From a virus (Duplodnaviria; Caudoviricetes): a stretch of DNA of 64,000 nt. Each line of letters begins with the position of its first letter. Position 1 is the first letter of the stretch. Made by a program: the position numbers and the translations under genes. The stretch spans positions 318 to 64,317 of IMG/VR virus record IMGVR_UViG_3300035670_000197. The stretch is one strand, 5' to 3'. The notes beneath the pieces are model-generated. The model ran no database searches. It was not told the origin of the DNA and worked only from the letters and a program-made list of their open reading frames with translations. This document shows positions 5,329 to 25,384 of the stretch, one piece after another.

Positions 5329-5360
5329 TCCAGTGTGCTCCTTAGTTTTGGTAGTGGGGC

Positions 5361-6257
5361 TTAGTCGCTAGGAAGTGTCACTCGCATTGCGAAATGCATC
5401 GAGGGGTCTGCATAAACCGCAGCGGGGCGGAATGCTTTAATCCTCATGTTGTTTATTGTAACATCTGCGCCTTGTGCCAAGTTCTCGTTTACAATCTCGA
5501 CTTTGCCGAGGTGCACATCTACTTGACCTGTTGCATACATCCACTTGTTAGTGGCTGATGCAGCTGCGTTCGTGTCTCCAATAGGGCCGTTGCCTGTGTA
5601 TCCAGAACCAATAACAACATCTGTTCCTAGACGAGTCATTGCTCGACCAAAACTTTCGTCGTCACCCTTCTTATACACAAGACGAGAGCCAAGAATTGAG
5701 GCTACGTCTCGTGTCATGTGAATGACCCCCTTCTCACCTGTAGGTGATTCGGAGATTGCTTGTTCTAGAATCATCAGGGCGTTCTCTGGCTTTTTAGCAC
5801 CAGAAACAGGGACAGTCACGGTGGACGCCTTACGCAGATACATGTTGGATGTATCTGGGTCAGGAGCTTGAGCGGCTAGCCCTTCCCAAAATTCTCGTTC
5901 AACTGCCTTTTGTGTGGCTGCCTCTAGCGCGGCAACCACTTGAGCAAATCGGTCTTCACCAGGAAGACTGAAAGTTGAATCAAAAAGCTCTGCGTCAACG
6001 TAGAAGGGAGTGTACTCAAGATAAGTCTGGTCGCCCTGATTATCTGAGAGTGTTCCGTTTGTAACTACTTCATCGTTGACAGTTAGTAGACGAATGTATG
6101 ACGGAAGAGAGTTTGTCTCCTGTGATAGGTGACGAATCCACCTCTCGTCATATTCCCGTCCAGTGTGTTTCATCACACGAGCGACGCTCAGGATGCCGCA
6201 GGGTGCTGGAACTAACTCGTTCGCTGGATAAACTCCTTTGAATGTTGCCATTTCCAA
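5361..6257 (-). CDS. Second capsid protein (probable major capsid pentamer protein)
   Basis: Between major capsid and major tail genes; GVIHM...TRLGTDVVIGSGY...WMYATG pattern. Confidence 0.6.
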   Translation of the reverse strand: MEMATFKGVYPANELVPAPCGILSVARVMKHTGREYDERWIRHLSQETNSLPSYIRLLTVNDEVVTNGTLSDNQGDQTYLEYTPFYVDAELFDSTFSLPGEDRFAQVVAALEAATQKAVEREFWEGLAAQAPDPDTSNMYLRKASTVTVPVSGAKKPENALMILEQAISESPTGEKGVIHMTRDVASILGSRLVYKKGDDESFGRAMTRLGTDVVIGSGYTGNGPIGDTNAAASATNKWMYATGQVDVHLGKVEIVNENLAQGADVTINNMRIKAFRPAAVYADPSMHFAMRVTLPSD

Positions 6258-6312
6258 TATCTCCTTAGCTTCTCTGAGCGTCGCCCGTTGTGACTACTTG
6301 TTGACTATCGGC

Positions 6313-8478: not shown

Positions 8479-8649
8479 TGTCCCTCCTTAGGGCAGTTAG
8501 GTAAGAACACGAATGTTCTATGTTCTTTCGCTGATGAGTCGAGGCCGAGGGACTCCGATACGCATGGTGCGTGGAGGCACTCCACCTAGATAGAATGTTA
8601 CATAATCCCCGGAAGGGTGATTGTACGATTTTGATGCTCTTTCTGGTTC

Positions 8650-11600
8650 TTAGGTCAGAAGCCTGAGGAGCTTCGCCATCTGGGAAGAAATCTCAGATTG
8701 GTTGTAGTAATCGCCACCAGACATGAACTTCTTCAAATCGGCTGTGGCCTCATCGGCATCTTCTTTTCCGATTTTGTCCTCAACCCTTTTAATCATATCT
8801 TCCATGAGCTTTTTCAGGGCAGGGGGAACATCGGAGAAACGAATCTTTTCTGCCTGCTCACCGAAGGCAAAAGGCAGGTTGGCAATGACCTTTCCAAGCT
8901 CTGCTGAGCTGGCTCGGACGTTCTCTAAAGATTCAGGATTTAGCGCTTTTGCGTCCAATCGGTCGATAATTCCAATCAAATCGCCCGCTGCTTTAGCTGC
9001 ATTGCCGTAATCTCCAGCGTTATCGAGGTTTTCGACCTCTTCTACTTTTTCGATTACTCGGTCCAGACCAGCCACTCCTAGGTCTGACTTCAAACGAGCC
9101 AGTACCTTACGGAACTTTCCTGCAGCATCCCGAGGTTGGGTCTGGGGGGTGTACTTGCCTCGGGTCTCATCTTTTTTTGCGCGGTTCATTCTTTCTACTT
9201 TTAGAGCTTCGATTTCCTCTTCGGTGAGGTCATCGACATCTGCAAAAGTCGCTGAAGCGGTTACAGAACCATTTTCAAAAAGTGCTCCTAAATTTGCTGA
9301 CTGGGCAGACAATTCAGCACGAAGGCGAAGGTCATCTACCATCGAGTCAATTGTGGAAGCCGCTTTCCAGTTTTCTGGAACAAGCTCTTCCTTGCCTAGG
9401 GCACGGGCACGCTTGCGAATGTGAGTGCGAACCTTTGCGCGGTCTTCTGGGTTGGAGCGACCATAAGCCGAAATTGCGTTCTTTAGGTCTGACTCGTTGC
9501 GGATGGGATATGAACCATCAGGAAGGGCTTGGCCCTTCTTCGCCAAAATCTTGCGCTCTTCCTCAGTGAATTGCTTGAACTCAGTCACTGCGGATGCAGC
9601 AAGAGCACGCTCTTGGATTGTGGCTTCGGCACCGTCTGAAATGAACTCGCCAAAGTCCTCCATTGATGCGCTCTTCCACTTCTCTGGGATGAGGTCTACT
9701 CGGCGGAGGGCACGAGCACGACGCATAATGTGCTTGCGAACCTTGCCGCGAGCGCCGGGCTTAGAGCGACCATAAGCTTGGATTGCATTCTTTAGGTCGT
9801 CAGAGTTTCGAATTGGGAAAGAGCCGTCGTCAAGAGCCTTACCTTCCTTGGCAAGACGCATACGAAGACGACGAGAGATGACAGCCATTTCGGATTCTGG
9901 ATTGTCATCCAGCATCTGAATCATGTATTCCCAACCGTTTTCGTCTGCCTTGTCTTCTTCCTTAACTTTCTTGACCTTGGCAGCAAGCTCTGCGTGCTTA
10001 CTTGCAACAAGTGGCTTCTGTAGACGGTCAATTTTTTTGTTAATTTCTGCAAGAGGGTCGTGCTTCATTTGAGCCAAAACATTGGCACCAGCAGCAACAA
10101 GAGCCATAACTTGACCTGATGCAACACGAGCACGAGCAATCGGGAAGCCTGGAACGTTTACTTGGCATACTGCAACAAGCTCAAGGTGACCCTTGATTGG
10201 ACGCCAGTCTCCCGATGGTGCTGAGGCACGGGCAGCGCGGATTTGCTCGGGGGTTGTGCCAGGGCGTAGTGCGCCTGAAACCCAGATTCCGTAAGCATCC
10301 TCTCCTGCGTGCACATCTGCGAAAGCTGATGCAGTGTCGTCGTAGTGACGAACTGCTTCCTCTGCAGAAGCTTCTAAACCAGCGTGACCGCCAGCCAAAG
10401 TGAGTTGACCAACTGGGACATCTTCACCGTCAGCGGTTCGGATTACACCAGTGTGGAAATATGAATACTTAGAGCGGCTGCGTGGGGGACGAGTCCCAAA
10501 AGCCATTCCGATGTGGTCTACATGCCAAGCAGCAATGTGACCGAATACGCGACCCTCGTCTGTGATTGTGAGTGGTGTCGCTTTTGTAAGTTTGGGGTTG
10601 TCGAACCATTCCTTTGGTGGCTCAACAGGGATAGCACCAGCAACCATTCCGCAGGCAACAAGCGCCGAAGCGTCTAGCGGGTCAACTCCCTCCACATATA
10701 CGCCGTCTGGTAGCACTTCGCCCTCCTGAGCTTTTGTGTCTTCTACTAACTGAATAAAGCACTCTTGAAACGCAGGTTTCGGGACGATGGTTACAGCCAT
10801 GACCCGTGCGCTCGTGATATTTATTCTACCTGACTCGATTTTCTTCGAGTCTCCAGAATCGTCGTCGGCAGCCATCTCTGGCTCCTCAGCAACGAACTGG
10901 TCCATATCGGCTGATACGCCACGGATAAAACCGTTGCGAACCAGTCTTTCGGCTTCTTTACCGAAATCTCCTTGGTCGAAAACGCCATAGGCGTTGCCAA
11001 TTCCTTGGTCTGTGCGCTCCATGTGGGTGATTTGACCGACCACAACTGAGCCGTCGTGACCTTGACCTGTCTTAATTTGCCAGAGCAGTGGAATAGGAAG
11101 TTCGCGCATACTAATTGCGCCCTTCTCAAAAATTCGACCGTCTCCAGACTCAAGTCCCTCTGGGATTACCAAAGGAATAATGAACTTGGAGCCATGCTCT
11201 GTTGGCTTGGCAGATTCTCTTCCCAAGAGGCGAGACTTAGCTGAGTAAGCGCGAGCTCGAAGTGTCAACTCCCCAATAACTTTTTCTTCTGGCTTAAGAG
11301 TTTCGATATCAGCTGAACCACGAATACCCTTTCTCTTCTTACCAACATTGAACTTGGAACCAGGCCATACGCCAGTCATTTCCTTGTGGCGAAGAGCGCA
11401 GTAACCCTTTGCTCGTGGGCCCATGTACTTAGCTAACTGCTTGTAGCAACGAGTCCAGTCACCTGGGGTGTTCCAACGAATCTTGAGGCCACCCTTACCG
11501 ATTGTCCAGTAACGGCGAAGTTTTTCGGCATTGCCTCGGTTTCGGTCTAAACCACCAGCAGCTTGTACTGAAGCGATGATTGCATTGTTAGACAGAGCAA

Positions 11601-13698
11601 AGTGGCTAGGTACTCGAAGAGAGGCAGTTACTGAAACATTTCCGTCAATCTGTTCTGTGACGATTGAAAGAGTTTCAGCATCAAGAAGAACGACTGGAGG
11701 GGGGGTTGGGCTGTTTAGGTCACGAGCAATTTGGTCGTTGCGCTCCCACTTTTTGTTGCGACGAACGAAAGTAGCAGGGGTACGAGTCTTCTTGCTTGCT
11801 GGGATTAAGCAAACAAGTTCCATCACAGCTTGTGGGTCATCCTCGGCAACAATTGCCATGTAGAGAGGAGCAACGTCTGCTGTTTCTGGTGTCAGGTCTG
11901 TATCGCCAGTACCAGCAGCAACTACACCTTCATATCTACTATTTTTATTATCTTTTTTCTCGAACTTAGGGTTGTATGGATGCCAACCAGTAAATCTTTC
12001 CCGAGCAAGGTCACCAGCGGTTTTTGTTCCAGCGTTCTTGTACCAGTCGCGTAGGAATGGACTTAGGTCCATAAGGTTGGGAGCAGTTGCAGGGTTCCAC
12101 TCTTGCTTAGTTGTTCCGTCTGGGTTCTTGCTTCCTTCGTAATAGCGACCAAGAGCAGTGTTTACATCTGGAGCAGTTTTGTACTGCATAGGTGGAACTG
12201 GGTCCCCGCTGTATTCAGGGGCGAGACGCTGTTCTGCAACCCAAGAGCCCCAGTCATTAATCAAAAGGTTGACACTAGGAGCAGTTAGAGGAGGAAGGCG
12301 ACCAGGCAACTGCGCTGTTGGCTGGTCAATCGGTACACGAGGCTCTCCGAGGATGCCTGTGAAATCTAGGTTATTGGCAGGGAAGTTTGCAGTTGATACT
12401 GGCTCAAAAGTGCTGACTTCTTGAATTGTGTTGCTAGGAACAGTAACAGTGTTTCCGTTATCTAGCTCAACACTCACTTCTTGAGTCTCTGGGTTTAAGG
12501 CTGTGATGTTTCCTTGGTAGTTGTAGTCCCCACCAATGACAACACGCTCTCCCATAACAGCAAAGCGACCAAGTTTGTCTCGTACCTGTGAAGAAGCTGC
12601 TTCTGAACGCTCTTCTTCTGTGTAAACACCTGGAGTTACATCTGCCTCAGCAAATTCTGTAATAGAAGCTAGCAAACCGCCAAAGTCATCTTCCCAGTCT
12701 TCCGACTCAATAACTGTGTCATCACTGAGCTGGTCTAGGAACTCCCAATCAAGTTCTGGAATTGAGTTCTCGAAAACTTCTGACTCGTCAAAGTCAATCA
12801 TTTGGAGATGAATTTTCTCCATTGGATTGTTGTCGAGCATTGCAGAAATCTTGACTGCTGACTCCCTGTCACAGGGTGTGTGAATCTTTTGTGTCTGGTC
12901 GTATGGGTCATCGAGAGTCTTGTCGTAAGTCTCAAAGTCGTGCTCGATGTTTCCTAGGTCGTCCCAAGCTCCGTCGTCCCAAACAAACACTGAGCCGTCT
13001 TCGTCAACCTTATAAAGACGGTCAATGCCTGAGCCGTCTAGACGAATACGAATAAAGAAATCTGGTTCTATTTCTGATGGACGGAAGGAGTCATAATCAA
13101 CTCGTTCGGCTCTGCTGTAGTCATCAAAACCGTAAGAAGCGACCATTGGCCCCTTCTTCTTTTTGTTTTCACGCTCAACGATGGCAGAGGCCCAACGCTG
13201 TGCAGCGTCACCGCCCCAAAGTGCCCAAGCGATACGACCGTTGGATGGGTAGTTGTCTTGGCCTGGCTTGTAGCCCTTGCCCTTCTTGTCTACTTCGTGG
13301 CGTGGGAAATATTTAGCAATGTGGCGAACCTTCTTGATACCAATCTGACCACCGCGAGCAAGAGTGCGAGCAGTATTAAGACCAACTGGTGTACCACCTC
13401 GCTTTTCTTCCTTACGCCAAGCAAGACCACGCTTTGCCTCAGCAATAACGGCGTCTGGAATCGTGTACATGCGGTCGTTATCCGCAAAAACTCTAATGTC
13501 AAGGTCTGTCAAGGCAGCGTTGGCTAGTTCATAGGTAGTGCCTTCTGGGCGTGCCCCAAAGGCGTTCCACTGGGAGGCTTCAAGCAAGGAATCTGCATCT
13601 CCAAGCTCAACGAGGGTCTTGGTTGATTCATCAATAATTGCGCCAATGCCAGCAGATGCGAAAAGCGCCTTAGAACCAACCCTGCCTAGGTAATCCAT
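8650..13698 (-). CDS. 1682-aa multidomain head protein containing the capsid maturation protease
   Basis: ESGDGRIF...LPIPLLWQ...GHDGSVVVG...GVSADMD...AVTIVPKPAF prohead protease motifs; GRVFGHIAAW domain; two GKALxDGSFPIRN repeats; directly upstream of capsid gene. Confidence 0.8.
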   Translation of the reverse strand: MDYLGRVGSKALFASAGIGAIIDESTKTLVELGDADSLLEASQWNAFGARPEGTTYELANAALTDLDIRVFADNDRMYTIPDAVIAEAKRGLAWRKEEKRGGTPVGLNTARTLARGGQIGIKKVRHIAKYFPRHEVDKKGKGYKPGQDNYPSNGRIAWALWGGDAAQRWASAIVERENKKKKGPMVASYGFDDYSRAERVDYDSFRPSEIEPDFFIRIRLDGSGIDRLYKVDEDGSVFVWDDGAWDDLGNIEHDFETYDKTLDDPYDQTQKIHTPCDRESAVKISAMLDNNPMEKIHLQMIDFDESEVFENSIPELDWEFLDQLSDDTVIESEDWEDDFGGLLASITEFAEADVTPGVYTEEERSEAASSQVRDKLGRFAVMGERVVIGGDYNYQGNITALNPETQEVSVELDNGNTVTVPSNTIQEVSTFEPVSTANFPANNLDFTGILGEPRVPIDQPTAQLPGRLPPLTAPSVNLLINDWGSWVAEQRLAPEYSGDPVPPMQYKTAPDVNTALGRYYEGSKNPDGTTKQEWNPATAPNLMDLSPFLRDWYKNAGTKTAGDLARERFTGWHPYNPKFEKKDNKNSRYEGVVAAGTGDTDLTPETADVAPLYMAIVAEDDPQAVMELVCLIPASKKTRTPATFVRRNKKWERNDQIARDLNSPTPPPVVLLDAETLSIVTEQIDGNVSVTASLRVPSHFALSNNAIIASVQAAGGLDRNRGNAEKLRRYWTIGKGGLKIRWNTPGDWTRCYKQLAKYMGPRAKGYCALRHKEMTGVWPGSKFNVGKKRKGIRGSADIETLKPEEKVIGELTLRARAYSAKSRLLGRESAKPTEHGSKFIIPLVIPEGLESGDGRIFEKGAISMRELPIPLLWQIKTGQGHDGSVVVGQITHMERTDQGIGNAYGVFDQGDFGKEAERLVRNGFIRGVSADMDQFVAEEPEMAADDDSGDSKKIESGRINITSARVMAVTIVPKPAFQECFIQLVEDTKAQEGEVLPDGVYVEGVDPLDASALVACGMVAGAIPVEPPKEWFDNPKLTKATPLTITDEGRVFGHIAAWHVDHIGMAFGTRPPRSRSKYSYFHTGVIRTADGEDVPVGQLTLAGGHAGLEASAEEAVRHYDDTASAFADVHAGEDAYGIWVSGALRPGTTPEQIRAARASAPSGDWRPIKGHLELVAVCQVNVPGFPIARARVASGQVMALVAAGANVLAQMKHDPLAEINKKIDRLQKPLVASKHAELAAKVKKVKEEDKADENGWEYMIQMLDDNPESEMAVISRRLRMRLAKEGKALDDGSFPIRNSDDLKNAIQAYGRSKPGARGKVRKHIMRRARALRRVDLIPEKWKSASMEDFGEFISDGAEATIQERALAASAVTEFKQFTEEERKILAKKGQALPDGSYPIRNESDLKNAISAYGRSNPEDRAKVRTHIRKRARALGKEELVPENWKAASTIDSMVDDLRLRAELSAQSANLGALFENGSVTASATFADVDDLTEEEIEALKVERMNRAKKDETRGKYTPQTQPRDAAGKFRKVLARLKSDLGVAGLDRVIEKVEEVENLDNAGDYGNAAKAAGDLIGIIDRLDAKALNPESLENVRASSAELGKVIANLPFAFGEQAEKIRFSDVPPALKKLMEDMIKRVEDKIGKEDADEATADLKKFMSGGDYYNQSEISSQMAKLLRLLT

Positions 13699-13949
13699 TA
13701 TTTGCTCTCCACCCTGTAGGGCTCTACATCTTCTCTAGTAGGCGTGCCTTTTTCAGCCTGAATTTCATCATAGACTGAAATAAAATCTTCCTTAATTGTA
13801 GCTACAATAAGACCATCTAATGCCTCGATTTGGTCCTCTGTAGGGTCAGTCCACTCACCGTTCATACGGATTTGCTCGATGCCATCTGAGACTTTGAAAA
13901 GAGCAGGGACCTCATCTCCATCAGAGATAAGAACGTAAAGTTCGTCCAT
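13698..13949 (-). CDS. Small acidic protein (candidate immunity protein)
   Basis: 83 aa, Asp/Glu-rich, translationally coupled to neighbours. Confidence 0.7.
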   Translation of the reverse strand: MDELYVLISDGDEVPALFKVSDGIEQIRMNGEWTDPTEDQIEALDGLIVATIKEDFISVYDEIQAEKGTPTREDVEPYRVESK

Positions 13950-14353
13950 TATTCCTCTTCCTCCTCATCGTCTTCGTCCACCATGAGCTCGTTATCGTCT
14001 GCATCGGCTAGGTAGTCCTGCTTAATCAAGAAAGCTTCGTTTGCGAACTCTGCTTCCCCTTCTTTTGCAGCTTCCACTGACTCATACTCTTCTTCGACTA
14101 GAAAGATTGAGCCATAAACCCTGTCAACAGCGACATCAGCCCAGTCTTCAGCAGTCTCTGGCTTTTCTTCGTCTTGGTAATTCCGAGCAACACTGGCTTC
14201 AATGCGGTCTGCATCTAAGCCATCGCCATTTGCCCAATCTGGGATTAGATACTCGGCACCTTCTTCTGTGGCAACGACTGAAAAGGAGTAATCCTCAAGG
14301 TCATTGACATCTGTTGCATCAATGTCATACACGCGATAAACAACTACAGCCAT
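13949..14353 (-). CDS. Very acidic protein (candidate immunity protein)
   Basis: ATG at 14353 just after the giant ORF stop; strongly Asp/Glu-rich. Confidence 0.7.
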   Translation of the reverse strand: MAVVVYRVYDIDATDVNDLEDYSFSVVATEEGAEYLIPDWANGDGLDADRIEASVARNYQDEEKPETAEDWADVAVDRVYGSIFLVEEEYESVEAAKEGEAEFANEAFLIKQDYLADADDNELMVDEDDEEEEE

Positions 14354-14355
14354 TT

Positions 14356-17300
14356 TTAGCCTCCCCATTCACTAATGTCAGCGTTCTTTAGTCTCTCTAA
14401 TCTAGAGACAAGCTTATCCATATCTGGGTTAGCGCCAGCTGGATACATTCTCCGTAGCTCTTGTATAGCCTGCTGGGTTGTGAGCTGCATCAACTCATAG
14501 ACACCCTTTGGACCAAGAGCCCGAACAACGTAGTTGTGGATGTTTGCTGCTCTGTTTCGACCAGGCGGGTTCATAATGTATTCAACTGGGTCTACTGGCT
14601 TACCGTAATAGTTCTCTTCTTTGGTAGCAATTACCTGACCAAGACCGTTGTCAATCATTAGAGGCATATTCGCAATGTCTCTATAGCCAGCTCCTCTGTC
14701 TTGGGGCTTAGCCACGAGGAAGTTCTGTCCATGTCGGTCGTTGTTATGCATTACAGCATCCAAGACCATCATCTGGAATACTTGATTTACTGGACCGTTG
14801 TCTACTAGCTCGCGAGGACCAACGTTTTCTTGAGCAAAGACTTTCGGTCCCTTCTTCATCTTCAAGTTCTGACCAGCTTGACCAAGAACAATTACATTGC
14901 TCTCTTTTGGATGAGCCTCTGCTGGGTACACACCATGCATACCAAGAGCACGAGCTAGGTCCACCGCAGCAAGTTCTGCGTCGATGTTTTCTTTGTCCGT
15001 GTCAATCTTGTAGAAGTAGACCTTTCCAGTCTGCTCATCAATGATTCGGTATGTCTTGTTTGCTCCGCGACGGCCTCCACCCATGCCAGTGGCTTCGACT
15101 CTGAACCCGAGGTCCTGACCGTTTCTTGTTAGACGGCCTCCACCTCTCTTTGCAGAAGCAATTTGACTTGGGCTGAACTCAAGGAGCATTGCCCCACGAG
15201 CGTCAAGTTTGTTGCCATCATTTGGCTCAAAGGCAAGACGCTCTTTGTGCAAGGCGTCTGCAAGCTCAACTAGATTACGAAGGTTGTTTTTCTCTTCCGT
15301 AGTCTTGTTTTGCTTCACAAGATTTCTTTGCACGATTGCTTGTAGAGCAAATCTTGCATTCTCTGGGAGAGATGCCAAAGGCTTTGGCTCACCATCAAAG
15401 AACCTACGAATTTCGTCCTTGTGCTGACGAATGTCTAGACCCTGCTGAGCAAGCTCATCGAGCTTAAGGTTGCCAAACATTTCTGCTTTCCAGAAATCAT
15501 TTAGCTGAGCCTTGTTCTCTCCATCCGCAATTCTCTTATCGCGAACTGCAATTGGGTCAAACTCTTCTAGTGGAAGTCCATCGAAGTTGAGCTTTGGACC
15601 AGCAGATTGCTGATTGTCGGCATTTCTGAAGATGACTTCCATGTTTTGCAGACGGTCGCGGTAGCGGTCCTGCATGTCCTGTGGAAGTTGGTCGAGACGA
15701 CGCTGGGCTCGTCCAAGGTAGTACTTGCCCATTCGCAAGTCGCCACTCTTTATCTTCCTATCAACTTCTTGAATGTTCTTAATGAAGCGCTGTTCCGCGT
15801 ATGTTCTAGCCCTGTTCTGAGGACCAATTTCTTTCTTGATGGCCTTCAGGTCCTTAAGAGCATCTTGCTCTTGCTTAAGAACTGCGGCATCGTCTGGGGA
15901 AACGGGCTTTGGAGCAGCAATTCTTGGGACAGGAACATTTCTATCAGCAGCGTCTTGAGCTACGACTTCAGGCTTAGGCCGAGCAGCTTGAGGTACCTCT
16001 GGTGCTTCAACCTGAGGAGTCTGTGGAGCTGCTGGAGCCTCTCCTTGTGGTGCTTGTTCTCCATCAATTCGGTACAAACCACTGATTGGTCCATTGAGTC
16101 TGTATGGTCTGTACTCGTATTCGCCACCGTTTGGATACTCAACTTTGATAGCAACTCTGTCGCCTACCTGATTAAGCCCAATTACTCGTCCAAAGTTTCC
16201 TCGTCTTGTCTGAACGTAGTCTCCTACTTTCACATCACGAACTTTGGCATTCTCAACTAACTGACCATTTCTACGAACATGCTCGTCACCAATTAGTTTG
16301 AACATGTCTTGTTCTTGGGCAGCAGGAGCTTCAGGAGCTTCAGGAGCTTCTTCTGGCTCTGGAGCAGCTGGTTGACCGACAGCTTCGTCCACTTGCTCGA
16401 CTACCTGCTCTACTGCATCGTCAGCAGCATCCTGCTCTGCGTTTCCACCCTTGCGTGGCTTCTTACGACGCTCTGCAAGAGCAATGTCCATTTCATCTTG
16501 GTTCATCCAGTTGATGCGAGGCTCTGCGTCGAAACGCTCCTTCGCAACTGCTGGGTCAACGTGACGCTGGAATCGTGAAACGTACTTGCGGATTTCACCG
16601 TTGGGGTATTGAACGCGAACATAGTCAACGTATACAACGCCCTTGCGTTGTAGTCCACCAATCTTTCCTTGGACTTTGCCAACTACGACACCTTCGCCGT
16701 ACTTCTCTCGAATCTTTGGATTCTCGTGGACAACCTTGTCGCCAATTGCGAGTGGGTTTCCGTCTGCGTCTGCGTAGAGACCAGCAAGAAGTCGGATGTA
16801 AACCTGACGACGGTACTTCTCAGGGATTGGTGGCAAGTTGCGACGACCACGGCCTTCTGTGCGGAGAAGCATTCCTTCTCGCTGGCGTGCGATTTCATCA
16901 GCAAGAGCTTCTGCAGCTCGCTTGATGTTCTCCTCACCGCCATCACTTGCAGCCTTGCGGTCTGGGAAGTCTTCTTCGACCTGAGCGATAACTTCGCCTT
17001 CGTCGTCAATGACCTTACCCTTGGAGTTGTAAACAACTTCTTCGCCTTCGGCGCGGGGAGTGATTTCGTTTTCACCACGACCAACTGGCAAATCGTCAAC
17101 GTGCTCAACCTGAGGAATCTCGTTGATGTTTGCTGGCTCATTACCAACAGCAAGAGACTTGTCTTTCTCTTCGCCTCGTGCTGCTTTCATATCACTATGT
17201 GCTTGAGCAGATGCACGCTTGACGTATTCTTCTGCTGCTTCACGACTTGGGAGAACTCCGTCGAACTTGACTTCGTTTCCGTTGTCATCTGCACCGTTGA

Positions 17301-20300
17301 CTTCAGCAACATAGTTGTCGCCGTCGCGAGTGATTTTTGCCTTGACATCTGAAAGGTTTGTAGGAACTGCCTTGACTTCGCCATCTTTCATCTCTGGCTT
17401 AGCAGCTTCGAGGGCACCAGCCTCTTCAAGGGCATCCTTATCTTCTGGGCCAGCAGCGAGAACACGACGGTCTTTAGGACGACGAACTTCATCAAGGAAT
17501 GCGTTCTGGTTCCAGAACACAACCTTCTGGTCGCCTTCCTTGTTCTGAACTAGAACACGGCGCTTGAACTCTTCAACACCAAACTCATCACCACCACGGA
17601 TGGCTACAACTTGGTAGAAGTCATCCTTGTCGCGGTTTGGTCGAACAAAGTCACCAGGACGAAGGTTCTCAACCTTGATTTCGCCTCGCATAAGCGCATC
17701 GACGTTCTCTGGGTTGTTAACAAAGTCTGGGTCAGCAATTCTCATGCGACCATCTGGGAATGCAGAGTCTGCGTCTACATCAACAAGGTCAGCGACTGGC
17801 TCTGGTAGTTGCTCTGGTGCACCAATTCGACCAATCTCATTGACTGGACCTTCTGGGATTCCACCAACTCCTGCTTGCTTCTCAAGGTCTGCAAGGTTGA
17901 CTTCCTTACCCTCAAGAGCATTACGGAGTGCTTGTCGAGCGAGATAGTCGGCAAGTTGCTGCTTGTACTCGTCAATCTTTGGCTTAAGCTCTGCCATCTT
18001 GGCGTCGTACTCTGCCTGACGAGCATCTGCATCTAGAGCTGCGTTTCCAAAGTTATTGTCTTCTGCCTTCTTAAGAAGAGCGTTCCACAGTTCAGCAGTT
18101 GCAAGAGCGTCGAACTCGGCGTTGTGCCAGTTCTCAAGCTTTACGCCAGCGTACTGAGCGAGTGCCTCAAGGTTCTTACGACCTGGGTTGTTTGGGTCAT
18201 CCTTGAACATCTCGGCTGCAAGCCCCATCGTGTCACCGAGTCCACCCGGTGCGTAGTTGAGACCGAGCTCTTCTGCCTTACGACGGAATACCTCGTCATC
18301 GAACTTGATGTTCTGTGCAACGAGAAGAGGATTCTCGCCAGCCCATTCAAGGAACTGTGCAAGAACTTCTTGCTGACTTTGCTTGTCGTCAAAGAAGTTT
18401 TCTGGGAGTGGGCCACCATCAGGTCCAACTGCGTTCTTCTCTGCGTATGTACCCTTGAGCGGACGCCCTGGGTTCATGTACATGACGAACTTGTCTACGA
18501 TTTCGCCATTTCGAATCTTGTATGCAGCAATCTGGTATGGCTCGTTGCCATCCTTCGGGTCAATACCAGTTGTCTCGAAGTCGAACACAACGATTTCTTC
18601 ATCGTTAAGTAGCTCGCGGAACTTCTTCCAGTCTCCGTTTGCTTCCATTGCAAGTTCGGCAAACCGACCTTGGAATGCTGGGAATCCAAGCTCTCGTGGT
18701 GCACGAGGTGGCTTTTCGTTTTCTACAAGCTGGTTCTCTCCCTTTGCATCTGCAGCGGAGATAACTGGAAGGTTTGCTGGAGGATTCCAACGTGCCTTAA
18801 CTTCTTCAATTCTCTTTTGGTGAGCTTCGTTTGCTGCTGGGTCATCATCTGGGAACCATCCACCCTTGGGTCCACGACCTGCTGGGCGGTGCAGTGAGCC
18901 TTCACCTAGTTCTGGGCCTTCGCCTTCTGGAATACCGCGAATGACCTCAATAGGTGTGTCTTTCTTCCACTGCTTTTCTTGTAGGCCCATGCCTGGGTAG
19001 TGACCAACAATAACCATCTTGCCCTTTTCGCCTTCGCGAACTTCGACAACTTTGAAGTGGTTATCAAATGCAATGTCACCTGGTTGTAGGTCTTCTGCGC
19101 GGAACTTGGCAACGAAAGGACCACCAGCAGGCTTGTCATCTGCAACAGCATTGACTTTGGCTTCTTCAGCCTGTGCCTTAGTCGGGTCTACAAAGTCAGC
19201 ACCAGCAGCTTTAACTGCTGCTTTGTGGGCTGCCATGTCTGCGTCATAACGTGCCTGAGCCTCTGGGTCACGAAGACCCCACTCACCATCTTTCTTCATC
19301 ATCTTGCCGTAGTCGGCAAGCTCTGGCTTGTCTAGTGGGTCTTTGTCTCCCTTTTCTGGAGGAGCAACGTTGCGGATTACTTCAATCTCGCCGTTAGCAA
19401 ACCAGTTTCGGTCTTGAGTCTTGTGGCCTGGGTAGTAACCCTTGACATTAACTCGATTAAGTTTCTTGTTTCCTTGCTTGCCTGCGCTGAGGTCTGGCAG
19501 TTCACCAACTTCTTCAATAACGAAGTACTCATCGTCACGAACTGCGATATCGCCGGGCTGCAGGTCACGAGCAGCAACCATTGCACGGTGGGGTTCACCA
19601 ATTGCTAGGTCAGCTTCTTGTCCTCCTGCTCCTGCGTCTCCATCTCCATCTGCGGCAGGGGCTTCGGGTCCCGCTTCGTCCTCTGCAGGTGGTTGCGGGG
19701 CTTCGGGAGCCTCTTCTTGACGGGAACGAACTGGGGCTTCGGCTTCTTCGACATTTTCTCCTTCCAGAGCGTCTTGAACTTCCTGAGCATCAGGTTCACC
19801 CTGACCCTCACGGCCTTCTCGATAAATGTCGTCAATGAGTCGATTTGTGTCTTCACCTTGGAGCTGTAGTGCATCACGAATCGCTTCGCCAGGAACTCGT
19901 GCAACATAAGGCTCCCCTTCAGGAGTCTCTTGTCCAAGAGCACCAAACCCAGGCATTTCGTTACCTGGTTCAAGTGAACGACGAAGCTCATTCTTTAGTG
20001 CTTCGTTGTCATACTTGCGTGCAATATCAACTGGATTAAAGTTGAAATCTTCTGGAGCCTCTTCTGGGATTGCCATGTCCTCAGGATTGAATGGCTCTTT
20101 GTCTAGTTCTGCGTAACCTTCTGGAACTTCAAAATCTTCGTTCTTTGGAAGGAACTCTGCTGGGTCTTGCTCAGCACGAGCACGCTCGTCTTCATTCAGA
20201 CCCTCAAGGAGTGGGAGTTCCTTCATCTCGGGAACTGCGTCCTCGGGTGTTGGTACTTCTGCAACCTTTTCTAGGTCTTCTGCTTCTGCTGGCTTGTCTT

Positions 20301-22152
20301 CTGGGGCGCGATAGATGTCGTCAAGAATCTTGTCAGCGTCAGAGCCCTTTTCTTTTAGAGCTTCGTAGATTGCTTCTGCTGGGACAACTTCGTCGCCCTC
20401 TTCGAACTCAAGGGGTCCGTAACCAGTAGCTGGGTTCTCATCGTTACCAACAACTGATTGACGAAGAGCGTCCTTGAGCTCCCCCTCTTCAAACTTCTGA
20501 GCAAGTTCTGCTGGGTCATCTGTAAAGTCTGGAGACTCTTGACCTTGCACTGGGCCTTCTGGCTCGTACTTTTCTTTACGGTCAAAATCGTAGAAATTCT
20601 TTGGGGCTTGGTCTGGAGCCAAGCGAACCTTTGCACGACGGGGGCGTGGGTCAAAGAGAACTTCGCCATTCTCAAGGTCGATAACTCGACCATCGTCTGC
20701 AACGAGGTGGTCCTTGCGTGGGTCAAGTGGGAAAAGCCCCTTACCCTTTTCGAACTGCTTCATACGACGCTCGAAATCACGAATGTCGCGACGGGTTGGC
20801 TTACGAAGCTTAGGAATTACTTCGCCTTCAACCTCTTCGCCCTCTGGTGTTTGGATGGTCTCTTCCTTGTTAGGAATACGAGCACCTTCATCTCCACCAC
20901 CCTGATTTGGGTTAGGACGCTCTCCCTTTTGGTAGCGAGGCTCGTCGTCGCGCATAAGAGCCTGAGCATCTGCCCAAGACTGAACTGCAGCGAATGGACG
21001 CTCATCTCCACCACGGCGGTTGACGAAATAAACGGGAAGGTCTGGGTCTAGTGCGCCATCCTTGCCCTTACCAACAGCAATAACGTTTTGGCCTTCGCCT
21101 TCACGCTGCTCTGCAATCTCAAACTTGTCTTTTGCTGGAGCGTTTGGCTTGTCAAACTTGACGATATCGTATGCATCGTCTGTGTATTTCTTACCGAGGT
21201 CAACATTGTCACCGTAATAGTCGCGGTCGCCCTCGTCTGGCTGCCAAGCAGTGTCCTCGCGGAAACCGTCTGGTGCATCAATTACTTCGAGGTCTGCCTC
21301 GTTAATGATTGGGTCTTTTGCAGAAACCTTTGCTGGGCTTGGGCTGTATCCATCGCGGTTTCCCTTTTGTGGGATGTACGCCTTTACTGCCTCAGCGTTT
21401 TGTGCAGGGATTCGAACAAGCTTTCCATCTGGAAGCTCCATGTCGAATGTGTCCCGACCAATACCTTCTGCAACTACTCGACCGTTGAGGTTGAAAATCC
21501 CAGCGGCACGACGAATAAGCGCACGAAGACCGCCACCCATTTCTGCGAAGCGACCCTTGCGGTCACGACGCTGGAGCATCGCACGGGCACGACGGGCAGC
21601 AGATGAGTTTCCATCACCGAAAGCTGCAACGAGTGCGTACTTAGGAACGCTCCCCTGTGGAAGGTTTGCAAGACGAGTAATTGCGTACTCGTGCTCTGGA
21701 GAAGCAGGATGTGCTGTTAGAGCAGATGCAATAAGAGTCTTTACTGACTCGTCACGAATCTCTGGGTCATCTGTGTACCAACGAGCCTGACGCTCAAGAA
21801 GTTGGGCAAGAGAAAGGTTGTGCTTCTTGGAAGAACGAGGATGCGCTAGAGGAAGAAGGTCTGTGTTCTGTGCGCTAAGTGTCATCACTCGGTTGCGCTG
21901 AGCAAGAGCGATGTAATGAGAAATATCAGTAAGAGCTTGGTGCTTGCGAACAGAGAATGGCTGACCATCTGTCTTTTCTAGAGAGCGCTCGACTACCGTC
22001 TTGGCTGCTCCCTTTGTGACGGTGCGAGTTCCAGTGAAGTCAAGATTGGCAGCTTCAACAAACGAGTACGCCTCGTCAAGAATCTTTTGATTCTGCTCGG
22101 CTGCGCTCGTGTATCGCTTTGCTTTTGCTACTGGGTAATCATGCTTCTTCAT
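14356..22152 (-). CDS. 2598-aa head-module protein: SH3/KOW-like repeats, DEDDh 3'-5' exonuclease, C-terminal HipA/PI3K-PI4K-like kinase
   Basis: VVFDFETTG / AQNIKFD / HNAEFDA (ExoI-III); YFYK...DAELAA...HNNDRHGQNFLV...IDNG kinase motifs; LQPGD repeats. Confidence 0.8.
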   Translation of the reverse strand: MKKHDYPVAKAKRYTSAAEQNQKILDEAYSFVEAANLDFTGTRTVTKGAAKTVVERSLEKTDGQPFSVRKHQALTDISHYIALAQRNRVMTLSAQNTDLLPLAHPRSSKKHNLSLAQLLERQARWYTDDPEIRDESVKTLIASALTAHPASPEHEYAITRLANLPQGSVPKYALVAAFGDGNSSAARRARAMLQRRDRKGRFAEMGGGLRALIRRAAGIFNLNGRVVAEGIGRDTFDMELPDGKLVRIPAQNAEAVKAYIPQKGNRDGYSPSPAKVSAKDPIINEADLEVIDAPDGFREDTAWQPDEGDRDYYGDNVDLGKKYTDDAYDIVKFDKPNAPAKDKFEIAEQREGEGQNVIAVGKGKDGALDPDLPVYFVNRRGGDERPFAAVQSWADAQALMRDDEPRYQKGERPNPNQGGGDEGARIPNKEETIQTPEGEEVEGEVIPKLRKPTRRDIRDFERRMKQFEKGKGLFPLDPRKDHLVADDGRVIDLENGEVLFDPRPRRAKVRLAPDQAPKNFYDFDRKEKYEPEGPVQGQESPDFTDDPAELAQKFEEGELKDALRQSVVGNDENPATGYGPLEFEEGDEVVPAEAIYEALKEKGSDADKILDDIYRAPEDKPAEAEDLEKVAEVPTPEDAVPEMKELPLLEGLNEDERARAEQDPAEFLPKNEDFEVPEGYAELDKEPFNPEDMAIPEEAPEDFNFNPVDIARKYDNEALKNELRRSLEPGNEMPGFGALGQETPEGEPYVARVPGEAIRDALQLQGEDTNRLIDDIYREGREGQGEPDAQEVQDALEGENVEEAEAPVRSRQEEAPEAPQPPAEDEAGPEAPAADGDGDAGAGGQEADLAIGEPHRAMVAARDLQPGDIAVRDDEYFVIEEVGELPDLSAGKQGNKKLNRVNVKGYYPGHKTQDRNWFANGEIEVIRNVAPPEKGDKDPLDKPELADYGKMMKKDGEWGLRDPEAQARYDADMAAHKAAVKAAGADFVDPTKAQAEEAKVNAVADDKPAGGPFVAKFRAEDLQPGDIAFDNHFKVVEVREGEKGKMVIVGHYPGMGLQEKQWKKDTPIEVIRGIPEGEGPELGEGSLHRPAGRGPKGGWFPDDDPAANEAHQKRIEEVKARWNPPANLPVISAADAKGENQLVENEKPPRAPRELGFPAFQGRFAELAMEANGDWKKFRELLNDEEIVVFDFETTGIDPKDGNEPYQIAAYKIRNGEIVDKFVMYMNPGRPLKGTYAEKNAVGPDGGPLPENFFDDKQSQQEVLAQFLEWAGENPLLVAQNIKFDDEVFRRKAEELGLNYAPGGLGDTMGLAAEMFKDDPNNPGRKNLEALAQYAGVKLENWHNAEFDALATAELWNALLKKAEDNNFGNAALDADARQAEYDAKMAELKPKIDEYKQQLADYLARQALRNALEGKEVNLADLEKQAGVGGIPEGPVNEIGRIGAPEQLPEPVADLVDVDADSAFPDGRMRIADPDFVNNPENVDALMRGEIKVENLRPGDFVRPNRDKDDFYQVVAIRGGDEFGVEEFKRRVLVQNKEGDQKVVFWNQNAFLDEVRRPKDRRVLAAGPEDKDALEEAGALEAAKPEMKDGEVKAVPTNLSDVKAKITRDGDNYVAEVNGADDNGNEVKFDGVLPSREAAEEYVKRASAQAHSDMKAARGEEKDKSLAVGNEPANINEIPQVEHVDDLPVGRGENEITPRAEGEEVVYNSKGKVIDDEGEVIAQVEEDFPDRKAASDGGEENIKRAAEALADEIARQREGMLLRTEGRGRRNLPPIPEKYRRQVYIRLLAGLYADADGNPLAIGDKVVHENPKIREKYGEGVVVGKVQGKIGGLQRKGVVYVDYVRVQYPNGEIRKYVSRFQRHVDPAVAKERFDAEPRINWMNQDEMDIALAERRKKPRKGGNAEQDAADDAVEQVVEQVDEAVGQPAAPEPEEAPEAPEAPAAQEQDMFKLIGDEHVRRNGQLVENAKVRDVKVGDYVQTRRGNFGRVIGLNQVGDRVAIKVEYPNGGEYEYRPYRLNGPISGLYRIDGEQAPQGEAPAAPQTPQVEAPEVPQAARPKPEVVAQDAADRNVPVPRIAAPKPVSPDDAAVLKQEQDALKDLKAIKKEIGPQNRARTYAEQRFIKNIQEVDRKIKSGDLRMGKYYLGRAQRRLDQLPQDMQDRYRDRLQNMEVIFRNADNQQSAGPKLNFDGLPLEEFDPIAVRDKRIADGENKAQLNDFWKAEMFGNLKLDELAQQGLDIRQHKDEIRRFFDGEPKPLASLPENARFALQAIVQRNLVKQNKTTEEKNNLRNLVELADALHKERLAFEPNDGNKLDARGAMLLEFSPSQIASAKRGGGRLTRNGQDLGFRVEATGMGGGRRGANKTYRIIDEQTGKVYFYKIDTDKENIDAELAAVDLARALGMHGVYPAEAHPKESNVIVLGQAGQNLKMKKGPKVFAQENVGPRELVDNGPVNQVFQMMVLDAVMHNNDRHGQNFLVAKPQDRGAGYRDIANMPLMIDNGLGQVIATKEENYYGKPVDPVEYIMNPPGRNRAANIHNYVVRALGPKGVYELMQLTTQQAIQELRRMYPAGANPDMDKLVSRLERLKNADISEWGG

Positions 22153-23618
22153 TTGGCTACCGTCCGTGTTGGCAGGAGGTCGGAATCAACACTGTCGTAT
22201 GTCATCGTTGCTAGACCGAAAGCTCTCTTGAATGGATTTTCATTGTTCCTTACGGCACGCATCCAACTTGCACGAATGGCGTGTTCTGCTTCGTAACCCA
22301 AACCAGAAAGCTCTGTGAGAACGAGAATCGCCTCTTCAGGAGACTCATACTCCCCTGATTCATTGACCTCGACACTCAACTGAGTTTCGGCATAAGCAGA
22401 AGCAATAAGAAGCTCTAGGCTCTCTGGGTCCCGAACTGGGACTTGGGTAACATCAACAACACCTTCAGGAATAACGGCAAAACGACACTTACCGAGGTCT
22501 TCGACCTCAAGAGCAATAATCTTGCAGGTGTCGCGGCCTTCTTCATCGTGTGAGTAGAAGACACAGTTCATGCATGAGACGCCAATTTTTGCGTCTTCGT
22601 TTTCTGCAGCAGGTGTGTAACCTGCCCAAACGCCGTCACCGTCTTGGTCGAACTTTCCGTACTTCTCTGTGATGTAAACGAGTGCTTCAGCAAGAGCCTG
22701 CTCTTCTGGAATAAGACCAGATGCAACAAGGGCTTCACTCGCTGAGCTTGCCTTCTTCTTGGTTGAGCGTGGGTGACTTGCAGGAAGCAAGTCGTTATCT
22801 GTTGTGTAGGAAGACTTAGAAGGCTTACCAGACTTCAGTAAACGAAGGAACGCATTGACGCGACCCATTGCCCACTGATTGCGAGTCATTCCGGGTCGGT
22901 GTGAAACAGAATAAGCACCAGCACCGCGACGATAAACTGCTTTGAGCATAGAAAGAGAGGCTCGTCGCCCCTTCGGCGCAGTTTTGTTATGTTCTTCGAC
23001 CTTATTGCGTAAAGAGGCTTCGACGGATTTACTAAATGCGATTTTCTTTCCACCAGAGGCCGAACCTTTCGTGTTTTTTGAAGAACCCTTGATTCGGTCT
23101 TTCTTTGGAGCGGGTGTTTGAGAAATGGTGCGCTTTTTCTTAGCAGCAGCCGTTACCGACTCCTCCATCTCCTCGGTTGTCGCTTCGGTGGGGGAGGCTG
23201 GTTCTTTTTCTTCCGCGATTGGGCCGCCTGATACCCAAGCCCTGCAAGTACGAGCGCTGGCGCACTTAAAGTCAAAAGCCTCGCAATAGCCGAGTTCTCC
23301 TGCGGCGTCGATTGCGTCGAACTCATCAGAACTGCGGTTGCCAGTAAGTCCTGTAGCAATGCACTCCTTCATGGATGGTGTGATAACGAATACGGCGCAG
23401 TTACCACAGCGTTGCTTCTTTGCGGTCTCAATATCAACGGACCACTCGTCAGCAAGTTCTTGCCAATACTCTTCGTTTGGCTCTTCTGGGTTTAGAGGCC
23501 CGTACTTTGCTGTGTCAATTGCGTTCTTACGATTCTCAAGGTTGACAGCAATGTCTTGAGTTGCCTCAGGACACTTCGGACCATTAATGTCGTATGCCAC
23601 GGCTAGCTCTTCGCTCAT
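22149..23618 (-). CDS. Multidomain head-module protein (two Cys-rich domains and a DUF5824-like domain)
   Basis: CPEATQD...CGNC...GYC...C...C domain; LKAVYRRGAGAY...QWAMGRVNAF; CMNCVFY...C...C domain. Confidence 0.65.
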   Translation of the reverse strand: MSEELAVAYDINGPKCPEATQDIAVNLENRKNAIDTAKYGPLNPEEPNEEYWQELADEWSVDIETAKKQRCGNCAVFVITPSMKECIATGLTGNRSSDEFDAIDAAGELGYCEAFDFKCASARTCRAWVSGGPIAEEKEPASPTEATTEEMEESVTAAAKKKRTISQTPAPKKDRIKGSSKNTKGSASGGKKIAFSKSVEASLRNKVEEHNKTAPKGRRASLSMLKAVYRRGAGAYSVSHRPGMTRNQWAMGRVNAFLRLLKSGKPSKSSYTTDNDLLPASHPRSTKKKASSASEALVASGLIPEEQALAEALVYITEKYGKFDQDGDGVWAGYTPAAENEDAKIGVSCMNCVFYSHDEEGRDTCKIIALEVEDLGKCRFAVIPEGVVDVTQVPVRDPESLELLIASAYAETQLSVEVNESGEYESPEEAILVLTELSGLGYEAEHAIRASWMRAVRNNENPFKRAFGLATMTYDSVDSDLLPTRTVAK

Positions 23619-25384
23619 TGCTCTGGGCTTTCCTGTGGGGCTTCCTCAGCTGGAGGCGCTTCTTCAGTAGGAGCTGTTTCTCCTGCTGCTTGTTGAAGAA
23701 CTTTCTCAACTTCTGGAGGAAGCGGAGCGACCGAAGCTGACTGTTGTGCGTCTCGCACTGCAGTCATCATGTCTGGAGCAACGGCTCCAAGCATTGCTTC
23801 TGTAAGTTCTGGAGTGAATGCGCCCTTTTCGGTAAGCATTCGGAGAGCAACCTCTGTTGGTGTAGGTGCATCTTGGTCTGAGAATCCATGAGCACGACGC
23901 CATGTGTCAGAGGAAACTGCCATGCGGTCGTAACCAGCATCTGCATCTGCAGCACGGTCGTTGCGAGTCGAGACTGCTGATGGGTCGTACCAAATGGTGA
24001 TGCGGTTGACATCTGCTTCTGAGTAACCAGTTGCGACCAAGTACGGACGCAGGTACATAACAGTGAGCGCATCAACGATGAGAAGCATCAAAGGTTCAAT
24101 GTGCGCCTTGTAAAGTGCTTCATCAATTTGAAGAGCGTTTGAATATTTCACATTGGCAAGACCAGTGACTACATCCTTCGGAACGTCTAGACCCTGAAGG
24201 ATTCTTTCAAGTACTCGGTCTGCACGTTGAGCCAATGCAGGGTCGAACGAACGCTCAAACTTAAACTGCTTAATCTTGTCGCCAAGTTCTGCAGGACCAC
24301 GAATGATGAGCGGAACAACCGCGCTCGCAGACTCTTCATCGCGAATCGGAGTTGTCATCGCGTCGATGAGTTGCTCTTCGAACTCGTCTTCTGCTTCCTC
24401 AGGTGTGAAGCCAGCACCAATGCCGTCTTCTGAGTCGTATGGGTAGTTCGGGTCTGCTTGTGCAGCAACAGAAAGTCCGTCTGGAAGATAAAGAGCACCA
24501 GCGTTGAGGCGAGAGCGTGCAGTTGCACGGAATGTGCGGTTCAAAAGTAGAAGCTCAGCACAGAGGTCAAGAAGGCCGCGCAGAGATGAATCGGCTTCAT
24601 CAGAGTAACGAGGGTGTGAACGCCAAATGCGTCCTACGAATGCCTTGTTGCCAAGCTTTGTAACACGGCCTGCCATTCCAGAACCGCCACCACTTGATTG
24701 CTCACGACGACCAATGACGTTGTAGCCACCTTTGGCGTCAGTCATAACTTCGTCAACGGAACGGATGTCCCAAGACTCTGGGTCTCCAGAACCAAAGCGT
24801 GCTGGCATTTGAACGAGGTAGCACTCACCAGCAACTGCCAAGTTAAGAGCAGCATCCTTAAGAAGACCTGGCTGACCGCCGTAGGCAGAGTTCAGTCGGT
24901 TAAGAGCACGCTCAGCTGCAGCAGCAAGTTGTGGGTCGATGCTGTTTGAGTTAGAGACAGCGATAGGAGACTGAGATGGGTCATCAATCGCAGCTGCGAA
25001 AATTCGGATTCGGGATACAACGCTGGCAACGAGGTTGAAGGCGTACTTGATTTCGCCAATTGCGTCGTAGTACTCCCAAGCCTCTGCCTGCCATGCGCTG
25101 GAAGAAGCAGAGCGACGAGCTTTGAACTGCTCGAATTCTCCCTTGTCGTTGACCTTTACCTGTACTGCTGCAGCGGTAAGGGTTCGAGGGAAGTCGTAAG
25201 GAACTGGAGAAGGGCTGTTTGAATTGATAAAGACAGAGTTACGAGGAGCCGTTTGGGGTCTTGTGTTGAGAACTACTTGAGTAGAACGAGTAGTCGAGGG
25301 CTTACGCTTGGCGCGTGGCTTAGCAGCGGGTGCGCTTTGAACCTCAGGGGTTTCGCCCTTACTATCTCTTTTGAATACGCTCAC
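23615..25384 (-). CDS. Portal protein
   Basis: AWQAEAWEYYDAIGEIKY, VAGECYLV, RIWRSHPR, SAVVPLII motifs of actinophage portals. Confidence 0.88.
   Translation of the reverse strand: MSVFKRDSKGETPEVQSAPAAKPRAKRKPSTTRSTQVVLNTRPQTAPRNSVFINSNSPSPVPYDFPRTLTAAAVQVKVNDKGEFEQFKARRSASSSAWQAEAWEYYDAIGEIKYAFNLVASVVSRIRIFAAAIDDPSQSPIAVSNSNSIDPQLAAAAERALNRLNSAYGGQPGLLKDAALNLAVAGECYLVQMPARFGSGDPESWDIRSVDEVMTDAKGGYNVIGRREQSSGGGSGMAGRVTKLGNKAFVGRIWRSHPRYSDEADSSLRGLLDLCAELLLLNRTFRATARSRLNAGALYLPDGLSVAAQADPNYPYDSEDGIGAGFTPEEAEDEFEEQLIDAMTTPIRDEESASAVVPLIIRGPAELGDKIKQFKFERSFDPALAQRADRVLERILQGLDVPKDVVTGLANVKYSNALQIDEALYKAHIEPLMLLIVDALTVMYLRPYLVATGYSEADVNRITIWYDPSAVSTRNDRAADADAGYDRMAVSSDTWRRAHGFSDQDAPTPTEVALRMLTEKGAFTPELTEAMLGAVAPDMMTAVRDAQQSASVAPLPPEVEKVLQQAAGETAPTEEAPPAEEAPQESPEQ

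Follow-up and report, generated by a model that had tools for sequence, protein, structure and literature searches.

The window, by which we mean the whole 64,000-nucleotide stretch analysed here (an IMG/VR viral contig of 64.3 kb, IMGVR_UViG_3300035670_000197, minus its first 317 bases), carries among its head genes a single reading frame, open throughout, for a giant protein of 2598 residues, P0001 (14356-22152; minus strand, as are all features below unless stated otherwise). We put at roughly 0.6 the probability that P0001 is a polyvalent, multi-domain cargo protein, loaded into the phage head and ejected together with the DNA into a host of the actinobacterial type. The estimate draws on the gene, its domains and motifs, its operon context, its family, the exchange of its effector-bearing part and the co-variation of a small downstream gene; packaging, ejection, the targets and the role of that small gene's product have been reasoned from these observations. 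A protein identical (100%) to P0001 was recovered from the parent record.

Polyvalent proteins join 2-15 domains in one polypeptide, and the phage-borne ones were proposed to be packaged and injected, according to the account of Iyer, Burroughs, Anand, de Souza and Aravind in 2017 (PMC5512222). Like them, P0001 combines several enzymatic or effector domains and is encoded among the virion genes of a portal-terminase phage, and its relatives show a mosaic, recombining domain content that includes ArdC-N, the MPTase-PolyVal zincin and UvrD. Unlike them, it possesses no MuF, portal or ArdC domain and has a new front end specific to its own family. The giant family is probably a variant of the known polyvalent proteins that is undescribed in the literature we found; no published description of it came to light, and members may be present in the supplementary alignments of PMC5512222. 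Nor did we find literature joining polyvalent proteins to actinobacteriophages, or a HipA kinase to ejection from a phage virion.

The giant family and the exchange of its payload

In a full HMMER search of 1.84 billion representatives, the C-terminal kinase domain of P0001 was found in 57 other representative clusters, always at the C-terminal end, and 32 of the 57 are longer than 1400 aa (maximum 4243 aa). Members of this kinase family share a constant N-terminal module (residues 1-330), constant helical modules referred to here as DDPA (515-800) and a constant kinase end, the rest being made up of an optional barrel-exonuclease block (~854-1750) and variable inserts. The N-terminal module is encoded at 74 IMG/VR loci, and in every examined locus with visible neighbours the giant gene lies between the portal-P0005 pair and the protease gene. 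The same position is occupied by a 3289-aa counterpart (P0010) in DSL-LC01, a metagenome-assembled phage of 129 kb whose portal is 72% identical to that of the window. At locus L045, a giant of 3527 aa (4990-15570) with a 44% identical N-terminal module and a DEDDh exonuclease ends in UvrD, ArdcN (E 6e-31) and MPTase-PolyVal (E 2e-29) domains and is followed by a 42-aa acidic open reading frame (ORF). Since ArdcN and MPTase-PolyVal are signature polyvalent domains, this relative ties the family to the polyvalent class; a preliminary description of the region had proposed a multi-enzyme head-operon protein of that type, and family members do carry the hallmark domains.

Loci L004 and L060 align over 8654 nt at 96.5% identity as far as about residue 1159 of the giant; beyond this point they cannot be aligned, so that between ~96% identical phages the 3' two-thirds of the giant gene has been swapped, with a sharp breakpoint just after the second DDPA module. 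The last 450 residues of the giants fall into three unrelated classes: class K has the kinase end of the window type, class C the UvrD-ArdC-MPTase end, and class B a common 450-residue C-terminal domain (for example L007:18083-19432, and nine other loci). The class-B domain matches neither a Pfam family nor a PDB sequence; its invariant positions are H, Y, R-W and S-S, a pattern that may recall ADP-ribosyltransferase motifs. Portal identity to the window is 77-83% in class K and class B alike; for P0005 and the beginning of the protease fusion P0004, identity to the window is 62-77%, about equal in the two classes. A portal tree with 29 rows implies a minimum of three changes for class K, forced by well-supported branches, and exchange has therefore occurred repeatedly. 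The N-terminal and kinase identities of individual giants are likewise discordant (46.9%/59.0% for P0011 against 61.5%/31.2% for P0007). To judge from these alignments, everything after the second DDPA module appears to be an exchangeable effector cassette. With regard to its 3' end, those class-K contigs nearly identical to L060 stop inside the gene, and the window has no near-identical relative.

Several side observations concern the same loci. The closest full-length relative of P0001 is the L005 giant P0007 (9923-19174), in which an insert of ~560 residues (~2085-2644), absent from P0001 and composed of repeated helical units of the form '...R(L/I)AEPFDENL...', stands just before the kinase. 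Weak internal matches to the N-lobe of the kinase profile (E 6e-7 to 7.5e-4) occur at residues ~1670-1900 of nine class-B giants (L038, L039, L014, L040, L023, L027, L011, L016 and L008), and a kinase-like stretch was judged by eye to lie inside the DSL-LC01 giant; these giants may contain a second, different type of kinase. Upstream of the head genes, L003 (1-1951) and L004 (1-1823) hold several copies of a DNA repeat of at most a few hundred bases, with pieces 79-100% identical (blastn).

A near-identity DNA search with the gene against 50,697 phage records gave no match. With tblastn, the N-terminal and DDPA parts match DSL-LC01 only, and the other 20 of 21 matching records align to the exonuclease domain only. 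Species-representative prokaryote genomes, searched with a single pattern, yielded no relative of the N-terminal module. The assignment of an actinobacterial-type host rests on DSL-LC01, for which a purely genomic study gives Actinomycetia as the predicted host (PMC10611076). No WhiB is present in the record.

Enzymatic domains and repeats of P0001

The exonuclease is recognised by Pfam. RNase_T (PF00929) matches residues 1188-1355 (18088-18591) at 75.6 bits against a cut-off of 24 (E 9e-21) and is the only Pfam family above its cut-off in the protein; PADLOC and NCBIfam scans added nothing beyond it. All five catalytic residues of a DEDDh 3'-5' exonuclease of the DnaQ/PolC proofreading type are present, in the motifs DFETTG (1191-1196), NIKFD (1281-1285) and HNAEFD (1343-1348), at the nucleotide places named in the preliminary description. 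Of the sequences with solved structures, the domain lies nearest to the PolC proofreading exonuclease (2p1j, E 2e-12) and to the DinG exonuclease.

Two kinds of repeat precede and follow this domain, each comparison having been scored against 300 shuffles. The duplicated helical modules (DDPA, 'DDPxELAQKF...VPxEAIxxAL...DDIYR') at residues 540-616 and 700-778 (19819-20535) match each other with z 20.1, in agreement with the duplication noted previously. Small-barrel repeats a (855-935) and b (1010-1085) stand in tandem (18898-19590), share the pattern LQPGD...GYYPG...IEVIR and score z 15.5. Repeats c (1485-1565), d (1780-1870) and e (1945-2035) lie at 16048-17700, in a region that also holds an intervening stretch of unassigned function and acidic linkers of PEAP type; the pairs b/c and d/e reach z 4.6 and 3.6. 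Five SH3/KOW-like repeats had been claimed; the repetition is real and the SH3/KOW fold is putative. Only sub-threshold small-barrel matches were obtained in Pfam (for example HAS-barrel, E 0.002) and none passes.

The C-terminal domain (residues 2190-2598; 14359-15585) comprises a helical lead-in followed by a core that resembles an atypical protein kinase. The kinase motifs YFYK (2379-2382), DAELAA (2391-2396), NNDRHGQN (2470-2477) and IDNG (2500-2503) are all in place; in an alignment of 19 sequences E2393, N2470-x-D2472-R-H-xx-N2477 and D2501-x-G2503 are invariant and K2382 is kept in at least 90%. The structure predicted for the C-terminal 409 residues from the same 19-sequence alignment has a mean predicted local distance difference test score (pLDDT) of 90.5 and a predicted template modelling score (pTM) of 0.92, and in an exhaustive structure comparison (VIA) the best 50 rows are almost all kinases. 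The top match is CotH (Z 13.0, root-mean-square deviation 4.1, 248 aligned residues), HipA follows with Z 10.7 (root-mean-square deviation 4.5, 226 aligned), and further matches are PI4KIIalpha (10.6), Fam20 (10.1), CtkA (9.9), MavQ (9.4), HipT (9.3) and actin-fragmin kinase (8.7). Foldseek gave CtkA (E 1.9e-4), ATM and HipT as the best matches. When the kinase profile was compared with PDB sequences, the type II phosphatidylinositol 4-kinases PI4K2A and PI4K2B came closest, weakly (E 0.06-0.2, PI4K2B at 0.06), with an alignment that covers the catalytic loop DRHxxN and the IDNGLA segment.

The domain had been called HipA-like in the preliminary description. Its kinase motifs and predicted kinase fold stand, and the HipA label is too narrow: HipA_C (PF07804) reaches 13 bits against a gathering score of 30.5 and over residues 2455-2482 only, HipA_N and Couple_hipA have no Pfam match in P0001, and CotH, PI4KII and Fam20 fit as well or better by fold. 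PI3_PI4_kinase (PF00454) likewise stays under its gathering score (15.5 against 27.1 bits, E 0.017). It therefore appears from the fold matches, the intact motifs and the sub-cut-off Pfam scores that this is an atypical kinase of the PI3/4K-HipA-CotH-Fam20 assemblage, catalytically competent in appearance, rather than a demonstrated HipA. It shares its modelled protein-kinase-like fold with HipA/HipT, the type II PI4-kinases and CotH/Fam20, and differs from HipA in having neither the HipA N-terminal domains nor a HipB-like helix-turn-helix partner, and in forming the end of a 2598-residue protein. It also keeps a full helical C-lobe, unlike the polyvalent kinase clade described in PMC5512222, which has lost the C-terminal subdomain and which that account places mainly in Verrucomicrobia-Chlamydia and Bacteroidetes (pro)phages.

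One feature of composition extends over the whole protein. P0001 has no cysteine among its 2598 residues, whereas its neighbours P0004 and P0005 have 7 and 11; among family proteins of more than 1400 aa, 27 of 35 lack cysteine altogether and the remaining 8 have one or two. Such a composition fits passage in an unfolded state.

Acidic downstream genes and the head operon

The late structural operon runs on the minus strand in the order portal, P0005, P0001, P0002, P0003, P0004, major head protein and tail genes; the contig has an estimated completeness of 48%. The portal (23615-25384) matches phrog_776 (E 8e-104), P0005 (22149-23618) is a 489-aa head-module protein whose middle part matches DUF5824 (E 6e-8), P0004 (8650-13698; 1682 aa) is a prohead-protease fusion matching phrog_859 (E 2e-93) and phrog_18402 (E 2e-56), and the major head protein lies at 6313-8478; a major tail protein, a head-tail adaptor and a tape-measure protein are found on the same strand around the giant. 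The preliminary description was right in placing a 2598-aa ORF between portal and protease, and P0005, which it did not mention, also intervenes. The genes are tightly joined: the P0005 stop overlaps the giant start in ATGA, and TAATG overlaps occur at the P0002/P0003 and P0003/P0004 junctions. After the giant's TAA come GGAGG, a 6-nt spacer and the ATG at 14353, and because an identical database cluster has the 134-aa form, P0002 (ORF-A; 13949-14353, 134 aa) likely starts there and not at the alternative 14368. P0003 (13698-13949) has 83 aa. Both small proteins have an isoelectric point of 4.05, P0002 being 34% D+E with a poly-acidic tail, so that their earlier portrayal as two coupled, very acidic genes is confirmed; neither has a match in Pfam, PHROG, PADLOC or NCBIfam. 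The ESM Atlas places P0002 near unnamed viral clusters (scores 0.78 and 0.75), which we treat as leads only.

The preliminary description had suggested a search for swapped C-termini accompanied by a co-varying small ORF, and its outcome is positive for the first of the two small genes. ORF-A of the P0002 type is seen only beside class-K giants (the window, L005, which is the same contig as L009, L019, L078 and L079), class B is paired with a different acidic ORF-A (21 frames) and class C with a 42-aa acidic one (6 frames), so that the type of ORF-A tracks the C-terminal class with zero exceptions among the visible loci. L078 has both the kinase (61%) and the ORF-A (49%) closest to those of the window, and in L005, L019 and L079 the kinase is 30-32% and ORF-A 32-35% identical to the window. 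In residues 1780-2035 the order is reversed, L078 being more distant (35%) than L005 (58%). We infer that P0002 is most likely a dedicated partner of the kinase, a guard or chaperone, in the producing cell. Predictions of a complex between the kinase domain and P0002, run without controls, gave 0.79, 0.00 and 0.00 and are counted neither way. P0002 is not a piece split off from the giant, in the manner of HipS and HipA; the best E against the giant is 0.49.

For P0003 the picture is another one. Homologues of it stand after giants of each of the three classes (32 frames), including ones that lack this kinase; in several loci (for example L008, L020 and L031) they are fused to an ORF-A of another type, and in DSL-LC01, L058, L063 and L068 a P0003-like domain is fused to the Cys-rich N-domain of P0005, to which, in L079, a P0002-like N-part is joined. 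The occurrence after every class and the fusions to other head-module domains therefore argue that P0003 is not a kinase antidote. Judged by these arrangements, P0003 and P0005 appear to be general, mutually associated accessory proteins of the head module. P0005 itself has three parts, the Cys-rich N-domain (15-138), a central DUF5824-like part that contains DLLPxxHPRSTK, and a C-terminal part that is again Cys-rich. The N-domain, with the motif CPxATQDIxxNLxNR, is mobile, being upstream of the giant in the window and downstream in DSL-LC01, L058, L063 and L068; copies in relatives lie at L001:22168-22902, L058:13435-14145, L063:17930-18655, L068:18619-19665 and L079:5977-6762. The DSL-LC01 copy is annotated as 'high potential iron-sulfur protein', and P0005 has a weak HIPIP match (E 0.008).

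Further features of the contig may be noted. In P0004 the module '...DGS[FY]PIRN..DLKNAI.AYGRS...VR.HI..RA.AL' is present twice, near residues 1290-1440, and the N-terminal region of the protein matches phrog_2859, a phrog without assigned function. In the non-structural half of the contig, a ribonucleotide reductase is encoded on the plus strand (58068-60113; phrog_367, E 1e-141) and an ATPase on the minus strand (41677-42714; phrog_16448).

Proposed loading and delivery, and competing explanations

The family-defining N-terminal module (residues 1-330; 21163-22152) is modelled (pLDDT 77.5) as a helical part (17-194) bearing the motif DLLPxxHPxS, a flexible segment (QRRDRKGRFAEMGG, nt 21547-21567) and a small beta domain (208-256). 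Residues 187-261 of the giant align with residues 364-433 of P0004 (E 1e-5) over RDxxGRFA and a barrel module. Across all six reading frames of the window, the motif RDxxG[RK][FW] occurs once in the giant, twice in P0004 (the second, RDxxGKF, near its C-end) and nowhere else, and DLLPxxHPxS occurs in the giant and P0005 only, two proteins that are similar at E 5e-5. Because these short modules are common to three adjacent head-operon proteins, they may serve as assembly or procapsid-loading signals. No match was found for the module at E <= 0.001 in BFVD, below E 0.99 in a PDB profile search or at a usable level in the ESM Atlas; the best match in VIA (Z 8.2) is generic helical and limited to a 74-residue stretch (13-87).

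If P0001 is cargo, it would be made late, together with the head proteins, and its N-terminal module would load it into the procapsid, where the prohead protease might trim it. It would then leave the capsid with the DNA, largely unfolded, a passage for which a cysteine-free chain with long acidic PEAP linkers would be suited. Early in infection, before phage gene expression, host or defence targets would be attacked by the DEDDh exonuclease and the kinase. The task of P0002 would be to bind the kinase end, or hold it, in the producing cell. The idea of a head-packed enzyme that enters the host with the DNA has precedents in the internal proteins of T4 and the virion RNA polymerase of N4, which are carried in the virion; these have been seen there experimentally, whereas P0001 is known from sequence only. 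The account in PMC5512222 also cites T4 Alt as a virion-carried effector and the T7 protein kinase as acting on host translation factors.

Several points weigh against such a role. P0001 itself lacks the hallmark polyvalent domains ArdC, MPTase and MuF (Pfam), and its kinase passes no curated family cut-off. Its N-terminal module has no recognisable fold, so that the loading role is a deduction, as are presence in virions and ejection. The phage collection holds no cultured relative, only the metagenome-assembled DSL-LC01. The co-variation of ORF-A comes from few independent events, being visible in two of three class-K lineages of the portal tree plus two loci without a portal, and plain physical linkage of neighbouring DNA would yield the same pattern. 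Finally, P0002 and the class-B ORF-A are not detectably homologous (hhalign probability 1.7%), and the notion that they do the same job is therefore not supported.

The preliminary description envisaged something akin to a MuF toxin system, with the packaged giant as the toxin (kinase plus nuclease) and the two acidic ORFs as dedicated antidotes, and we regard this as doubtful. P0001 resembles the MuF polymorphic toxins, as Jamet et al. present them (PMC5576092), in the place of its gene in the head operon next to the portal, in its exchangeable effector ends and in having a small gene just downstream whose type follows that of the effector. The P0002-type ORF-A occurs only with the window-type kinase and diverges in step with it, each of the three C-terminal classes has its own downstream ORF, the genes are translationally coupled, and the fold matches include HipA (Z 10.7) and HipT (9.3), toxin kinases whose antidotes are small proteins. 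Yet the MuF domain is absent, as had been suspected: PF04233 has no match at E <= 0.1 in P0001, P0004 or P0005, nor is MuF found anywhere in the 64-kb record, while control genomes gave matches. The unit exchanged here, moreover, is a multi-domain segment of ~1,400-2,400 residues and not a single C-terminal toxin as in the MuF proteins of that report, and within the kinase-bearing family it is the kinase end that is constant and the middle that varies, which departs from the pattern of MuF toxins. No candidate partner co-varies with the exonuclease, and neither small protein belongs to a family in the four collections searched. Of the two supposed antidotes, P0002 is a plausible partner, found only with the class-K kinase, whereas P0003, present in all classes and fused to ORF-A of other types or to the P0005 N-domain, does not fit the part.

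It is quite improbable, in our estimate, that the giant is a structural or assembly component, such as an internal head, scaffold, 'inner body' or head-completion part whose enzymes act in the producing cell, for instance in end-trimming during packaging. Its location between portal and protease, the module that it has in common with the protease/scaffold fusion, the long acidic linkers and repeated barrels, and the conserved partners P0003 and P0005 that shuffle and fuse together would all suit such a part; the wholesale exchange of the enzyme-bearing two-thirds between ~96% identical phages would not, and neither would the conservation of catalytic residues or the existence of at least three unrelated versions, one of them with an ArdC anti-restriction unit. 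Such exchange is characteristic of conflict effectors rather than of structural components. Least probable, and very much so, is a late non-virion protein, an enzyme of host takeover or replication whose gene lies in the head operon by coincidence. Ordinary replication or takeover functions do also include DnaQ-like exonucleases and kinases, and packaging has been read from sequence; against this stand the invariant position after portal-P0005 and before the protease in every examined locus, the motifs shared with the protease fusion and the cysteine-free composition.

Returning to the polyvalent cargo protein, a broader and more speculative proposal, which we consider unlikely as a whole, would make the head operon a polymorphic 'cargo effector plus guard' system, with a constant loader, exchangeable payloads and an acidic guard for each. 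In the window, a PI4KII-like kinase would be ejected into an actinobacterium and would act on membrane lipid or on translation at the start of infection; actinobacteria are among the few bacteria that have phosphatidylinositol lipids.

The prediction of 2017 that polyvalent proteins are multi-tools, packed in the head and injected, has been put to the test for hardly any of them. The present family offers a natural experiment, in which ~96% identical phages share everything up to a fixed breakpoint and have different payloads beyond it, each payload end with a matching downstream gene. It raises the questions of how proteins of 2,500-4,000 residues are loaded without MuF, whether their lack of cysteine is connected with passage through the tail, and whether ejected effectors need a guard in the producing cell. 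A further addition is a kinase family, so far uncharacterised, whose catalytic residues are intact and which has been seen to date only at the ends of such giants (57 clusters).

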